Below, piece after piece: positions 4,036-22,414 of a DNA stretch of 64,000 bases. The stretch's first letter is position 1. Each line of letters opens with the position of its first letter. The DNA comes from a virus. Lineage: Duplodnaviria > Caudoviricetes. A program made the position numbers and the translations under genes. The stretch covers positions 1-64,000 of the IMG/VR virus record IMGVR_UViG_3300037249_000698, one strand, 5' to 3'. The notes under the pieces were generated by a model, which was not told where the DNA came from, made no database searches, and worked only from the letters and a program-made list of their open reading frames with translations.

Positions 4036-7015
4036 CCAAGCCTCGTATATCTAATAACTTGTAACAAACACTTCTAGTCTTGTATGCAGAGTATGACATA
4101 GCTTTAGAAATTGGCTCTAACGCACCCTCTAAAACAAGTTTTTCTAGTGTAGCTAAAATACCTTTAGTATAACCGTATTTATATCGAACAAATATTTTTT
4201 GTGATGATAACACGTAATTTAAATAACTAATCGGAACAACACAATCTCTCCGCATAATCTGAATAGTCTTAGCAGGTATATTGGTTGCGTTACACAACAA
4301 TACAAAATCACTTGAAACCAAAAAGCGTTTCATATAATCAAGGATTGTTGTACTCATGGTATTTTCAGCGTTACCTGTCAAGGCTGTTTCACCGTTGTTA
4401 ATCATATCATATACGTTTGCAATATCTTGAAAAACTATTCTACTTGCCCATGCCATGTGCTGAATATTGATAACAGGATCACTATATCTCTGGCATACAG
4501 CACACAAACCTGCGAGTTTTAATATCTTTAACTGGCATCTATTCCAAGCCTGTCTAAAGTGTTCTCTGTCACCTGATTGGTCTAGCATCTCCATACACCA
4601 GTTTTCTAACATCATATTAAATTCATCTGCACTATCATCTAAGCGTATCTGAATAAAACGTGATGCCGTAATTGCAGTTCCGTGACCTGATAATGAACGT
4701 TCCTGACATAATAATTCGTTCAGCTTGTCTAGCACATAATCAGGGCAAGGAATACCAAAAGTTGTTTTATTCTGCGGAACTGCACCGCCTTTATAGGTAA
4801 TTGTTGTAAAACGGCTTAAAAATCCGTCTGATGCCATATCAGGTGTTATAGCGTCTGCGATACCGCTTATTGTTGTTTCACCAACAATACTAAATGCAGG
4901 AGCGTAAGTTTCAGTAAAATTGTTTTCAGCATTACTGTATGTCATAGCTGACAGCATATCGCTTTCAGCAGAGCCAGTGTATAAACGTAAATACTGTGAC
5001 CGTAAACTTTGTGCTGAAACATTTTTTGAGTTCTCACTCATTTCAGCAAGATTTTTACCAAACTCTTTTTGGAAATTCACAAAACTTGCGTACTGCGGTA
5101 TATCAAGGTTAAAGGCGTTATTTGCTCGACCAGTCTTAGAACCTGCCTCCTGTAAACATCTTTTTACAAGTGCCTGTCCTGACGCAAAATCATCGTCTAC
5201 AACATGTCTACGGAAATCCGTTTCAGCATAACGCTTTTTAAGCTGAACTGATAAATCGTTCTTTGTAGTGTGTAAACCCTCTTTACCTATACCACTTCTA
5301 GCACATAAAATAATATAGTTATTCAATCCTGTTGCGGTAGGTAACTGCCACATCTTTCCTACAATACCGCTAATTATAGCAATCACACTTGTTAGACTTA
5401 CCTCTAAAATAGGCTTGATACGTGATTCATAACTCCACTTGGTAAGTTCGTATAACAATCCGCTTGATGTAGGAGGAATAATCATAGCGTTTAAATTTGT
5501 AATACTAAAACCTTTTGTGCAGACAAAACCCTTATCAATAAGTCTTTTATATGATATATCTTTATCGGAATTAAACAGCATAAACTGACTGCTGATAGCA
5601 ACATTTGCTCGCTTTAACTGCTGTGCGACACCTGTGGCGTATAAGGTATCACAAAACATATTCTCTACGGTGTATGACGGATCAGTCTTTTCGTTCTGCC
5701 ATTTAGAATTGACAAGTACAGTTTCAACATCACGATTTATATAATCTCTGTTGATAAATTCATCAATTAAAGCCTTACGTTCAGCCTCTTTTTCTTTTGC
5801 TTTACGGTCTGTAATACGCTCTACAATTTCTTCAGGACAAATTGTTTTAGGTTGTTCGTTAACAGTATCGGTAACTGTAGGATTATCAACGACTATATCC
5901 TCGTTACGTTCACTTTCTCTGATACGTAAAATCATTCTATCGAGATAGTCTGTTCTCGTTGCTTTTGGTCTGCGAGCCAGTTCAGATAATGAGAAAATAC
6001 CCTTAACAATTAAATCGTTTTTACAATATCTTGCAATCAGCGACATAAGTCTGAAATCAGCCTCGGACTGACTAGGGAATGTTAATGTATTGTTTTCGTT
6101 GTAAACTGTTTTGTTCACATCGTTTTCATAGGTGTAATTGCATCTACCCTCAAACAAATCGTTGATAGTTTCCCAATCCGGACAAGTTATTAGTTCGCAG
6201 AGATAGTAGTTAACCTCGCAACTAAACTCGTCTGAATTATCAAACTTAAATTCAGTGTCAATATCAACATCGGCTTTATGGTCAACAGGTGATTTTAAGA
6301 TTGCACATAACTCGTCAAGTTCAGCCTGACGGTTTTCAATCTTATTTGTCTTGCTAACCATTTCTTCTGTAACAACCACAAATCTATCTTCGGAGTACAT
6401 TTCAAAACCGACAATGCCGAGTTCTTTATGTTTTGTACCGCTACGAATACCACTTGCACCTGTACCTTTTGTATTAGGATATTTTACAGGATCTATCTTG
6501 CCCTCGATAATTACATGATAGCCGTTACCTGATACAGAGCGTTCTGTGTAGGAATTAAACTTCTGAATCCATGAGTCTTGATAAGCAATTTCAGCTTGTG
6601 TAGTATCTGCCTTGCGGTCAAAATCAATGATTGTGCAAGGACAATTCTTTGTAAAAACAAAACCCATGCACAACTGCTTTTCTCTATTAACAGGAAACAG
6701 CATTAAGGCATTACGACAAATCTTATCGACCATTTCATAGGTTAACCAACCATTTCTAAACGCTTCGGTAGACGCCGTATTAACCAAATCACCTGTATAA
6801 CGTTTTGAGTTATCATCGGCAATAGTGTAGCTGTAATAGAGCCACAAATCATCGCTAGGACTTATATAATCTTCGTTATCCTTATCAAAATAATGTGGAT
6901 AAACAGCTAATACTTTATCTATCCACTTCTTTGTGACAATAACAGGTATCTTTTCGCCAACTTTAGCAAAACATAATACCCACTGTTTTAATTCTTTTAA
7001 TTTGTCAAAATTCAT
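4022..7015 (-). CDS. primase-polymerase (NrS-1-like) fused to DUF3987-type helicase
   Basis: IIDFD, SVSGNGYHV, EMYSEDRF, SQSEADF; C-terminal ARSGIGKE P-loop and DGFLSRF. Confidence 0.8.
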   Translation of the reverse strand: MNFDKLKELKQWVLCFAKVGEKIPVIVTKKWIDKVLAVYPHYFDKDNEDYISPSDDLWLYYSYTIADDNSKRYTGDLVNTASTEAFRNGWLTYEMVDKICRNALMLFPVNREKQLCMGFVFTKNCPCTIIDFDRKADTTQAEIAYQDSWIQKFNSYTERSVSGNGYHVIIEGKIDPVKYPNTKGTGASGIRSGTKHKELGIVGFEMYSEDRFVVVTEEMVSKTNKIENRQAELDELCAILKSPVDHKADVDIDTEFKFDNSDEFSCEVNYYLCELITCPDWETINDLFEGRCNYTYENDVNKTVYNENNTLTFPSQSEADFRLMSLIARYCKNDLIVKGIFSLSELARRPKATRTDYLDRMILRIRESERNEDIVVDNPTVTDTVNEQPKTICPEEIVERITDRKAKEKEAERKALIDEFINRDYINRDVETVLVNSKWQNEKTDPSYTVENMFCDTLYATGVAQQLKRANVAISSQFMLFNSDKDISYKRLIDKGFVCTKGFSITNLNAMIIPPTSSGLLYELTKWSYESRIKPILEVSLTSVIAIISGIVGKMWQLPTATGLNNYIILCARSGIGKEGLHTTKNDLSVQLKKRYAETDFRRHVVDDDFASGQALVKRCLQEAGSKTGRANNAFNLDIPQYASFVNFQKEFGKNLAEMSENSKNVSAQSLRSQYLRLYTGSAESDMLSAMTYSNAENNFTETYAPAFSIVGETTISGIADAITPDMASDGFLSRFTTITYKGGAVPQNKTTFGIPCPDYVLDKLNELLCQERSLSGHGTAITASRFIQIRLDDSADEFNMMLENWCMEMLDQSGDREHFRQAWNRCQLKILKLAGLCAVCQRYSDPVINIQHMAWASRIVFQDIANVYDMINNGETALTGNAENTMSTTILDYMKRFLVSSDFVLLCNATNIPAKTIQIMRRDCVVPISYLNYVLSSQKIFVRYKYGYTKGILATLEKLVLEGALEPISKAMSYSAYKTRSVCYKLLDIRGLDEVR

Positions 7016-13047: not shown

Positions 13048-13782
13048 TTACAGCGGTAAATCTTCATAATCCTTATCAAGTCTTAATCTCACAAGTCTAG
13101 GGAATCTGAATTTGCCGTTAACTGTAATTTCACGATAACCCACTTGAATGATTTTTCCGATATATTTATCTTTGTTATCGTAAAGTTCTTTTCTGAACTC
13201 CATATCTGACATATCAGGTTGTAACAGGAACGATGCTACTTTACCCATTTTAGTTTTGATAGAACCCGCAACGTTTTCGTATTTACCGTTGCCCTTGTTT
13301 ATATCGTCTATACGGATGTCGGCAAATTTTTCAGGAACGACTTTTATCCAGTTATTTCTAGCAACTTCACGTAAGACAATTCCCTCATATCCGAGTTCGT
13401 TAGCCTTTTTGAGTAATGCTCTTATAGTATCTGCGGTAGGGTCTACAACTCTGCCGATAAACAATCTTGTATCAACACGGTCAGGCGTAAGCTCATAAAA
13501 CATGCTTTGATTGAAAGGTATATCAGGTTCTTTACTGTTATTGAGCATAGAAGATGTCGTGTTAAAGTCCTTGTAAAAGAACTCTGCATCATCAAACTTA
13601 AAACGTTCAAGATTATGCTTTACGAGTTCTGATTTACGTGAGTAGATACGACCGTCTTTACCACGAATACATCTAATACCGTCAATTTTGTAAGTTGCGA
13701 CAAAAATTCCTTTTAGGTCTGTATCTTCCCAATAGTTAGCCTTAATCCACTTTGTACCATCATCTAATATCTTAGTTGTCAT
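13048..13782 (-). CDS. minimal ATP-dependent DNA ligase
   Basis: KIDGIRC, EGIVLR, WIKV, OB tail FRFPRLVRLR. Confidence 0.85.
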   Translation of the reverse strand: MTTKILDDGTKWIKANYWEDTDLKGIFVATYKIDGIRCIRGKDGRIYSRKSELVKHNLERFKFDDAEFFYKDFNTTSSMLNNSKEPDIPFNQSMFYELTPDRVDTRLFIGRVVDPTADTIRALLKKANELGYEGIVLREVARNNWIKVVPEKFADIRIDDINKGNGKYENVAGSIKTKMGKVASFLLQPDMSDMEFRKELYDNKDKYIGKIIQVGYREITVNGKFRFPRLVRLRLDKDYEDLPL

Positions 13783-13824
13783 AATAATTCCTTTTGATAA
13801 AACTTGTTTGTGAAAACAAGTGAT

Positions 13825-13853
13825 ATTATACGACAAGTATTATACATCGTCAA
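13825..13853 (-). promoter_or_regulatory. sigma70 promoter for replication operon
   Basis: TTGACG-N17-TATAAT. Confidence 0.8.
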
Positions 13854-13894: not shown

Positions 13895-13924
13895 AAAAAA
13901 AATGCCCACTCAAAAGAGTGGGCA
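13895..13924 (-). terminator. terminator of tRNA/ncRNA transcript
   Basis: TGCCCACTC-aaaa-GAGTGGGCA with A8. Confidence 0.9.
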
Positions 13925-14275: not shown

Positions 14276-14364
14276 TGGCGGTGAGTGCAGGGATCGAACC
14301 TGCAAAACGCTTTTCAACGTTTACGGATTAGCAATCCGCTGTAATACCATTATACGAACTCACC
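14276..14364 (-). tRNA. tRNA-Ser(GCT)
   Basis: cloverleaf, long variable arm, GTTCGA, encoded CCA. Confidence 0.9.
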
Positions 14365-14370
14365 TGTTAA

Positions 14371-14458
14371 TGGCGGTAGATAAAGGACTCGAACCTTTAA
14401 GCCGTTTCCGACAGACAGTTTTCAAGACTGTTGCATTTACCAACTCTGCCAATCTACC
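14371..14458 (-). tRNA. tRNA-Ser(TGA)
   Basis: ACAGT-CTTGAAA-ACTGT, long variable arm, CCA. Confidence 0.92.
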
Positions 14459-14465
14459 ACATCGG

Positions 14466-14608
14466 TAATGGTTAGTGTGGATTCTATCGGCTGATCGTTT
14501 CCAATCCTACCACTGTAATATCCATGTACCCTATATTACGTAATTCAAATATTTAGGATATTACATTATCTTATCCTCTGCAATTTTCTACGGAGGCTCT
14601 AACCATTA
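14466..14608. ncRNA. candidate multibranch structured RNA
   Basis: closing stem TAATGGTTAG/CTAACCATTA plus three internal stems. Confidence 0.45.
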
Positions 14609-14644
14609 GTATGCACTATCGTATTAAACAATAACGCATAGTAA

Positions 14645-14747
14645 TGGTGGGGCGTACAGGAATTGAACCTGTTATTACCTCCCTCTCTTTGTACTTAAAC
14701 AAAGAAGAGATAACGGAGATGATGATAACCATTGTCACTAACGCCCC
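14645..14747 (-). ncRNA. tRNA-like RNA with extended anticodon arm
   Basis: perfect acceptor stem+ACCA and T-arm; no canonical anticodon loop. Confidence 0.7.
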
Positions 14748-14820
14748 AAATATCCGTTGATTACACTGGCTCAACGGAAAGCCTTGATAACCACAAGCAA
14801 TAAGCAAATGGTCTAGTAAA

Positions 14821-14905
14821 TGGTGGAGAGAGGTGGAGTCGAACCAACCGAACCACGAGGGAACAGATTTACAGTCTGTCGCATTTACCGTTCTGCAATC
14901 TCTCC
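14821..14905 (-). tRNA. tRNA-Tyr(GTA)
   Basis: ACAGA-CTGTAAA-TCTGT, CCA. Confidence 0.9.
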
Positions 14906-14907
14906 TA

Positions 14908-14982
14908 TATCACAGCGATAGGAATCGAGCCAACGACCTATGGTATCTTCAGTCCATCGCTCTACCATTGAGCTACATCATC
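14908..14982 (-). pseudogene. degenerate tRNA-Phe(GAA)
   Basis: intact D-arm TAGCTCAATGGTAGAGC and CTGAAGA loop; broken T-arm/acceptor, no CCA. Confidence 0.6.
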
Positions 14983-15065: not shown

Positions 15066-15141
15066 TGGCTGGGGCAGGTGGGTACGATCCACCGCATGAC
15101 GGTATCAAAAACCGTTGCCTTACCAACTTGGCTATACCCCA
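15066..15141 (-). tRNA. tRNA-Gln(TTG)
   Basis: ACGGT-TTTTGAT-ACCGT, CCA; atypical T-loop ATCGTAC. Confidence 0.88.
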
Positions 15142-15438: not shown

Positions 15439-15466
15439 ATTATACACGGTTTTTAAGTTTATGCAA
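15439..15466 (-). promoter_or_regulatory. promoter of tRNA/ncRNA operon
   Basis: TTGCAT-N16-TATAAT. Confidence 0.7.
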
Positions 15467-15513
15467 ATCTTTTTTAAAAAAATTTTCTAATCGTATGCAA
15501 AATAATCAGAAAA

Positions 15514-21442: not shown

Positions 21443-22414
21443 TTAATCCTTAACGCTTAACAGTGCATTACCACATGTGATTCTATCTGCATCTTCTTCC
21501 TTTGACGGAATGAATACTATTACCTGCCAACCCTCGGCTAATAACGGCTCTTCAAACTGTTTATACACATCGTACTTATAATACCCATCAGCGGTGTTAA
21601 TGCCGTTATCAGTAGCCTCATGTGTTTCATGGATTGGTGTAATTTTAACGATGAATTTATCCTTATCAAACAGTCTTGACAGTTCTTTAGGATCTAAGAC
21701 TGTATCAGTCGTAACAGGAAAATTCAATGTGTATTTTCTACCAACAGGCATTGGCAAATCTCGGCAAATTTCAGATATTTCAGCTAATGATAAAGACTGA
21801 CCTCTGAACAAATCATTACGCTGATTTTCATCGGTAGAATTTATTGATAACTGTAAACCTGCCTCACCTGCATAAACATCGTTTTTGATAGAACAAAAAT
21901 CTTTTAAAATCTGTCTTAACTTTTCCTTGCCTAAACCTTTTGGTAACATTGTTGTGAATACTGGGTGTATCACATCTGCTTTCATGTGAGTGTTTACAAT
22001 ATCACGCAAATCATTTACTAAAAATCTGAATACACATTCTGCATTAAATGCAGGTTCACCCATACGAGCCAAGTGTAAATTAAAACGCTTTGTGTACTTA
22101 CAACCGCTGAACTTAATAGCGTTAATTACTTCCTCTGCAAGTTCTTCTCGTGAGATATTACCCTTGAATTTAACTTTAGGACAGTCGCAGAACTTACACT
22201 TCATAGGACAACCTTTTTGGGTAGAGATTGTGACAACGAATTTATCTGCTAAATCTACCTCGTGATGCGGAACGGAATTTATTTCTTTTGTAAAACCTAA
22301 AAAGTCAGCCTTGATATTATTTTCCTTACCATAATCGCCTACATACAGATATTCCATTGTCTTATCAGTATCGCAAAAGATAACACCAGTATGAGTTTTA
22401 AATTCCTTAATCAT
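21443..22414 (-). CDS. RlmN/Cfr-like radical SAM protein
   Basis: ISTQKGCPMKCKFC, MGEP, LSINS, terminal TCGN. Confidence 0.85.
   Translation of the reverse strand: MIKEFKTHTGVIFCDTDKTMEYLYVGDYGKENNIKADFLGFTKEINSVPHHEVDLADKFVVTISTQKGCPMKCKFCDCPKVKFKGNISREELAEEVINAIKFSGCKYTKRFNLHLARMGEPAFNAECVFRFLVNDLRDIVNTHMKADVIHPVFTTMLPKGLGKEKLRQILKDFCSIKNDVYAGEAGLQLSINSTDENQRNDLFRGQSLSLAEISEICRDLPMPVGRKYTLNFPVTTDTVLDPKELSRLFDKDKFIVKITPIHETHEATDNGINTADGYYKYDVYKQFEEPLLAEGWQVIVFIPSKEEDADRITCGNALLSVKD

Follow-up and report, generated by a model that had tools for sequence, protein, structure and literature searches.

Clusters of tRNA genes in phage genomes are usually explained by codon supply or, lately, by the replacement of host tRNAs that were destroyed by defence systems. 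Species 1 RNA of phage T4 (rnaC) is a non-decoding stable RNA encoded among the phage tRNA genes, and we know of no function that has been established for it in about fifty years. According to its annotation and fold, this RNA possesses a tRNA-type T arm (CCGGG-UUCGAAU-CCCGG) near the 3' end, and its ends are paired. By analogy, it appears to be the nearest natural precedent, among those checked, for the tRNA-shaped RNA gene described here (14645..14747, minus strand), which is referred to as the tRNA look-alike. It differs from the look-alike in its length of 139 nt, its several long hairpins, and the lack of a cloverleaf and of an encoded CCA. No sequence similarity between the two and no match to the T4 family were obtained by blastn against a phage collection; species 1 RNA is an analogue and not a relative, and a homologue of rnaC was rejected.

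Other described RNAs share single properties with the look-alike. Ponchon and Dardel reportedly obtained engineered tRNA-scaffold RNAs that are processed in E. coli and accumulate as stable RNAs. Their topology is identical, i.e. a tRNA body with a foreign hairpin in place of the anticodon loop, but these scaffolds are artificial, whereas the look-alike is natural and conserved. The tRNA-like domain of tmRNA also consists of an acceptor stem, a T arm, CCA and a long helix replacing the anticodon arm. However, the look-alike has G3-C70 where tmRNA has G3-U70, its D stem is complete and its length only 103 nt, it contains neither a tag frame nor pseudoknots, and a tmRNA search with ARAGORN remained empty, in agreement with an earlier note on this DNA, which had stated that the RNA is not a tmRNA. 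In YrlA (RF02553), a Y RNA of bacteria and phages that mimics tRNA, a tRNA-shaped module is likewise joined to a long helix; both ends of this RNA lie on the long stem and the acceptor-like stem is closed. This arrangement is reversed in the look-alike, which ends at its acceptor stem; YrlA and Y RNAs were also rejected with regard to the absence of an RF02553 match at E-values up to 10 and of a Ro/TROVE gene in the phage. Like the t-elements of plant mitochondria and mascRNA, which are tRNA-like processing signals (PMC1920247), the look-alike is tRNA-shaped and non-decoding; these signals are cut by tRNA-processing enzymes and define the ends of neighbouring RNAs. They are of eukaryotic or organellar origin, whereas the look-alike keeps a D arm, an anticodon stem and CCA, which is more than such a signal needs. 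Finally, 'enigmatic' short introns were described in the tRNA genes of Lak megaphages from gut metagenomes (Devoto et al. 2019, PMC6784885). In both cases short, unexplained insertions in the anticodon region are missed by bacterial tRNA finders, and splicing is putative in both. The Lak tRNA genes were called intron-bearing, their anticodons are assignable, and alleles with and without the insert occur (PMC6784885). In contrast, the intron search of ARAGORN (-i) fails for the look-alike, no canonical loop is restored, and the insert is present in all variants listed.

The window (the whole stretch of DNA analysed, 64,000 nucleotides) belongs to a complete virus record of 95,133 bp with direct terminal repeats and a G+C content of 34.6%. 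The portal protein of this gut-metagenome phage shares about 45% identity with its counterparts in siphoviruses of Proteobacteria that belong to the Seurat and JG054 types. All features described below for the window are located on the minus strand. The look-alike is part of an RNA operon, in which tRNA-Gln (15066-15141), a decayed tRNA-Phe-like gene, the upstream neighbour tRNA-Tyr(GUA) (14821..14905), a leader of about 70 nt and the look-alike are followed by a structured RNA of 184 nt, tRNA-Ser(UGA) (14371..14458) and tRNA-Ser(GCU) (14276-14364). CCA is encoded by the look-alike and by all four genuine tRNAs of the operon. The operon likely starts at a candidate sigma-70-type promoter upstream of tRNA-Gln (TTTGCA-17-TATAAT; 15439..15467) and likely ends at an intrinsic-terminator-like hairpin with a T run (13903..13924), both being matches to a consensus.

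Three further elements of this region are worth describing. The tRNA-Phe-like gene (14910-14982), the decayed tRNA-Phe of the earlier note, reached 37.7 bits in Rfam, but its acceptor and T stems are mismatched. Its last approximately 18 nt, which make up the 3' halves of the T and acceptor stems, are identical to the 3' end of the tRNA-Pro(UGG) present in the relatives L003 and L005, and for this reason the gene seems to be a Phe/Pro chimera produced by recombination rather than by slow decay. The 184-nt structured RNA (14459-14642), which separates the look-alike from tRNA-Ser(UGA), is conserved in L002, L071 and L101; its site differs in L006, where tRNA-Thr and tRNA-Met flank it. Its consensus fold consists of several hairpins and includes four pairs with compensatory changes; a match in Rfam was not obtained. 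In the window, L005 and L046, the RNA operon is adjoined at its 3' end by a gene for a small ATP-dependent DNA ligase (262 aa, 13048-13836 in the window), and no sign of an action of this ligase on RNA was found.

Position p of the look-alike RNA corresponds to window coordinate 14748-p. The 103-nt RNA starts with GGGGCGU (14741-14747), which forms a 7-bp acceptor stem with ACGCCCC (14649-14655) and is followed by U8 and A9. The D arm GUGA-CAAUGGUUA-UCAU (14722-14738) has a 4-bp stem, holds G18G19 in its loop and is separated by one spacer base from the anticodon stem, in which AUCUCC (14715-14720) and GGAGGU (14677-14682) form six base pairs. The arm continues with a bulge of 5 nt on the 5' strand (GUUAU, 14710-14714) and a distal hairpin of 27 nt (CUCUUCUUUGU-UUAAGU-ACAAAGAGAG, 14683-14709), which is located at the site of the anticodon loop, between positions 37 and 38 in the canonical register, and contains one additional bulged U. 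A variable loop of 4 nt (14673-14676), the T arm ACAGG-UUCAAUU-CCUGU (14656-14672), the discriminator A73 (14648) and the encoded CCA (14645-14647) complete the element. The observation of the earlier note was thus confirmed, on the minus strand.

With regard to sequence and fold, the look-alike agrees with canonical tRNAs in the 7-bp acceptor stem, the discriminator, CCA and the UUC-type T loop, but it lacks a 7-nt anticodon loop with U33 on a 5-bp stem. Among the tertiary positions, U8, G18G19, U54 and A58 are present. Nearly all tRNAs possess A at position 14 and U at position 33; the look-alike is noncanonical at positions 14 (C, in all ten variants listed), 33 (G) and 37 (U). The statement of the earlier note that the element apart from its long arm is well preserved needs correction for C14 and G33. 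Since a closed, irregular hairpin takes the place of the anticodon loop, it is, judged from the sequence, almost certain that the look-alike cannot read codons.

Exactly this long-armed cloverleaf was calculated with ViennaRNA as the structure of minimum free energy (MFE), with -37.5 kcal/mol and a z-score of -4.9. Shuffled sequences reached -21.0 ± 3.3, and none of 200 was as stable; folded jointly with the leader, the RNA showed a z-score of -5.3. The minus strand was assigned to the look-alike because of the G-U pairs in its D and anticodon stems, and the family covariance model R1 yielded 129.5 bits on the minus strand versus 24.9 bits on the plus strand. Matches of R1 with 30 bits on tRNA-Ser(GCU) were ascribed to generic tRNA features. 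ARAGORN made no call for the look-alike, either with or without intron search. In Rfam searches of a 6-kb region, neither a match for the look-alike at E-values up to 1 nor any RF00005 match at this site was detected. When 391 nt were searched at E-values up to 10, the best match was tRNA-Sec (RF01852) with 22.7 bits versus a gathering threshold of 47 and with 45 nt unaligned. Since tRNA-Sec is defined by 47 bits, an acceptor stem of 8-9 bp and a long variable arm, this assignment was rejected. The sequence of the hairpin occurs a single time in the window (0 expected by chance).

Several other readings of the element were discarded. A minus-strand ORF of 63 aa (14616-14807) overlaps the look-alike. 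The relatives differ by -8, -5, -2, +3 and +4 nt, and indels of 1-2 nt occur in the leader; length changes that are not multiples of three exclude a coding role for these 63 codons. A class II tRNA with the hairpin as variable arm was rejected upon inspection since the preceding 17 nt form no anticodon arm, and a K-turn or a sarcin-ricin motif in the bulge does not fit the sequence. A group I intron requires at least about 200 nt for its catalytic core, whereas the insert has a length of 17-31 nt, and no intron match was obtained in Rfam. An alternative helix of GUUAUCUC(C/U) with GGAGGUAAU, which is the MFE structure for L002, would be broken by the changes in L027, L033, L058 and L101 and is therefore not conserved.

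Relatives were collected by exact and gapped pattern scans of IMG/VR, JGI and other metagenomes. Including the window, at least ten distinct variants of the look-alike were found; the relatives are L002, L003 (= L071), L004, L006, L027, L033, L046, L058 and L101. They originate from at least three sources, namely JGI Ga0326511-14 (four samples of one project), IMG 3300037400 and GenBank JAEEGL01. The long arm is present in every listed variant (at least ten) and a normal anticodon loop in none, so that neither a normal tRNA in the relatives nor an insertion private to this phage, both of which had been considered as counterevidence, was seen. The total length of the element is 95-107 nt among the variants listed, with a distal hairpin of 17-31 nt and a variable apical loop. 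In the listed relatives, the body, i.e. everything except the arm, is 93-100% identical to that of the window, and the arm 50-94%. On the same contigs, tRNA-Gln shows 74-96% and tRNA-Ser(GCU) 77.5-100% identity to the window. In terms of sequence identity, the look-alike is kept more faithfully in related phages than some real tRNAs.

The coding flanks are 66-72% identical to the window in L005, L004 and L046. In L027, L033 and L058, nothing can be aligned to the window except a module of about 180 nt, and in L006 the alignment is confined to this module and the downstream RNA of 184 nt. A neutral remnant would not keep 93-100% identity in genomes that are diverged or unalignable to such a degree. 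As the family is shallow, part of the conservation could stem from a small module having been exchanged recently. Either strong constraint or recent spread of the module between phages accounts for this pattern, and both point to a use of the element. The conservation of the body in nine listed relatives, always together with the long arm, supports the proposal of the earlier note that the element is a tRNA mimic under selection.

The variants also retain the structure. Three substitutions occur in the stems, and all are wobble-compatible (C-G to U-G twice, U-G to U-A); 97% of the alignment cells of the listed variants are paired in the structure given above. At the single-nucleotide bulge of the distal helix, these variants have C, A, U or no base, and the flanking pairs are retained. 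The 5-nt bulge is polymorphic for U and C (GUYAU), and the base of the arm and this bulge are conserved in nine of the ten variants listed. In L004, the GUUAU bulge is missing, nine bases of the arm are lost and a 5-nt bulge is present on the opposite strand, while the body is kept. Changes at the acceptor end comprise A73 to G in two variants, CCA to CCC in L006 and G1 to U in L046. Among the variants listed, no arm is broken except for the terminal 1-72 pair in L046. Compensatory double changes were not detected in the alignment of the listed variants of this shallow family.

Directly upstream, a conserved leader of about 70 nt (14748..14815) starts with TAGAC and contains UUGCUUAUUGCUU and a hairpin predicted by folding (CCGUUGA...UCAACGG, 14753-14778). 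It precedes the look-alike in nine of the ten variants listed, shows a mean column identity of 87% (alignment A3) and is 81-95% identical to the leaders of the relatives. Within IMG/VR, the pattern of the leader was found solely beside the look-alike. No covariation was detected in alignment A3, and a consensus scan revealed no promoter within the leader. Since the conservation of the leader almost reaches that of the body, the function may lie outside the tRNA body. In L101, the leader is absent and the look-alike follows directly after tRNA-Tyr, which shows that the look-alike can stand alone.

Two more sequences of contig L006 were examined. At the site that corresponds to tRNA-Tyr in the window, just upstream of the leader, L006 contains a sequence of 77 nt (~5586-5662, minus strand) with the acceptor GGGAGUA/UGCUCCC, the T arm UGUGG-UUCGAGU-CCACA and CCA, whose anticodon region is aberrant. 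It was called neither by ARAGORN nor by Rfam and may therefore be a second odd tRNA-like gene. Furthermore, a tRNA(CAU) with an A1-A72 mismatch (L006 4758-4828, minus strand) possesses the D arm UAGUGA-AAAGGUA-UCAU in comparison to UAGUGA-CAAUGGUUA-UCAU in the look-alike. By this likeness of the D arms, the look-alike may have descended from a CAU-type tRNA.

Homologues in cultured phages were not found by blastn against the phage collection, which yielded only generic T-arm matches, e.g. to tRNA-Asn of a Vibrio phage. An attP site or a copy of a host tRNA was rejected, as neither the 3' half nor the whole element had a match in 185,579 species genomes. A mobile or repeated palindrome was rejected as well, since the hairpin and the whole module are single-copy in the 95-kb genome. 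Searches with the arm pattern outside the family, in the genome and in IMG/VR, gave chance matches only. No partner gene co-occurs with the look-alike; its neighbours vary by contig (NrdD, sliding clamp, Dam methylase, DUF3310, ligase), and no homing endonuclease was detected among the neighbouring genes of the contigs compared.

The favoured explanation, which as a whole is considered possible though short of probable, is that the look-alike is a non-decoding tRNA mimic, matured like a tRNA and kept by the phages of this group under purifying selection; an action through its body as a decoy or competitor is the more tentative part of it. The RNA would be co-transcribed with the tRNAs of the operon, cut by the RNase P of the host at G1 and trimmed to CCA. 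Its L-shape would be as stable as that of a tRNA, and the helix beyond the anticodon stem would bar it from the decoding site of the ribosome, so that the elongated arm would prevent an interference with translation. The body could then compete for a host or phage protein which recognises the shape of acceptor, elbow and anticodon stem but not the anticodon. Possible targets are a defence toxin directed against tRNAs or a factor that processes or senses them. Across otherwise diverged phages, the body stays conserved while the tip of the arm varies freely. The variable discriminator (A/G73), CCC in place of CCA in L006 and U1 in L046 argue against a decoy that depends strictly on the CCA end and against charging by a specific synthetase. 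Two more specific proposals of the earlier note were not borne out. A decoy for anticodon nucleases is unlikely because no 7-nt anticodon loop is present that could be recognised, and L004 even lacks the GUUAU bulge. The phage protein regarded as RlmN-like (21443-22414, 323 aa) matched RlmN with 36 bits versus a cut-off of 290, and only in the Fe-S core of radical-SAM proteins. Its Pfam match is below the cut-off, and it belongs to PHROG 24834 (E = 2e-98), which is annotated as of unknown function. The label RlmN-like is an overstatement, and the protein is lacking in a relative of 75% completeness in which the look-alike is present, which speaks against the RNA as its substrate.

If, on the other hand, the arm is the working part, the look-alike would be a natural tRNA scaffold, whose arm (AUCUCC/GGAGGU, GUYAU and a CU-rich/GA-rich helix) binds a protein or an RNA, while the body merely provides RNase P processing and nuclease resistance, as in the engineered tRNA-scaffold RNAs with the same topology (PMC3753655). 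The conserved arm base and bulge in nine of the ten variants listed are consistent with this, as is the resemblance of the 3' strand GGAGGU to a Shine-Dalgarno sequence and of the 5' strand CUCC to its complement. However, the arm is the least conserved part of the element (50-94% versus 93-100%), its apical loop and helix length vary, matches to it were found neither at other sites of the genome nor in IMG/VR, and L004 has retained the body despite the loss of the bulge and of nine arm bases; a scaffold function is thus regarded as unlikely. The high conservation of the leader (81-95%) and its invariable connection with the look-alike in IMG/VR would also fit a processing signal, in which the tRNA shape directs RNase P and either defines the 3' end of the leader as the real product or punctuates the operon. 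The t-elements (PMC1920247) are a known precedent for such signals. Since the look-alike occurs without the leader in L101, the leader shows no covariation, and D arm and anticodon stem are invariant in the listed variants although the acceptor/T domain suffices for RNase P, this role is rated as improbable, even more so than that of a scaffold. It is still less probable that a tRNA gene was disabled by a palindrome inserted into its anticodon loop and merely persists or is carried along by recombination of the array. The presence of the chimeric tRNA gene (14910-14982) in the cluster, the visible shuffling of modules between contigs and the lack of covariation in the look-alike would agree with a dead gene. 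Nevertheless, neutral sequences are not expected to be 93-100% identical where genes show 66-72% identity or cannot be aligned, the arms of the listed variants are unbroken apart from the 1-72 pair of L046, and the module is the sole element common to different flanks.

Equally doubtful as a disabled gene is a precursor tRNA with a hairpin mini-intron that is removed by proteins and whose product would decode AUA (anticodons UAU/CAU, register shifted by one) or stop codons (UUA/UCA, canonical register). When the hairpin was deleted in silico, ARAGORN called a tRNA with the anticodon UUA, or UCA in L027 and L101. If the register is shifted by one, the loop reads G-U-UAU-A-G, with CAU in L027 and L101. 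The hairpin is then located directly after position 36, while it is found between 37 and 38 in the canonical register, and the U/C exchange as the sole polymorphism of the bulge among the listed variants gives sensible anticodon pairs in both registers. Moreover, 30% of all Ile codons are AUA, no tRNA for Ile is encoded by the phage, and unexplained introns were reported for the Lak megaphage tRNAs (PMC6784885). On the other side, the loop in the canonical register is CGUUAUG, with G33 and U37, and the shifted register requires G32/G38 and a spacer of two bases that separates the D stem from the anticodon stem; in addition, C14 replaces A14. The 5-nt and the 1-nt bulge are both located on the 5' strand and thus form no bulge-helix-bulge motif, ARAGORN made no call in the intron search, L004 has no equivalent loop, and a hairpin-free allele was not found among the at least ten variants. 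Within the complete phage genome, no Pfam match to EndA, RtcB or RNA_ligase was detected, and the genes are intact in the standard code, so that no suppressor is needed. The intron-containing tRNA considered in the earlier note is therefore a weak candidate. To our knowledge, a protein-based route of tRNA splicing of this kind has not been described for bacteria or their viruses. If it existed, splicing of the mini-intron would allow the phage to switch on a decoder of AUA or of a stop codon.

Because standard tRNA finders and Rfam miss the look-alike, the number of genes of this kind in phages is probably underestimated. The family of this 103-nt RNA with its natural arm variants represents a convenient test object. 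A non-decoding tRNA shape that is at least as conserved as the genuine tRNAs next to it fits neither the supply of codons nor the replacement of tRNAs, and the look-alike suggests that phages use the tRNA shape itself, be it as a decoy, as a competitor for tRNA-binding proteins or as a stable carrier of another RNA element.
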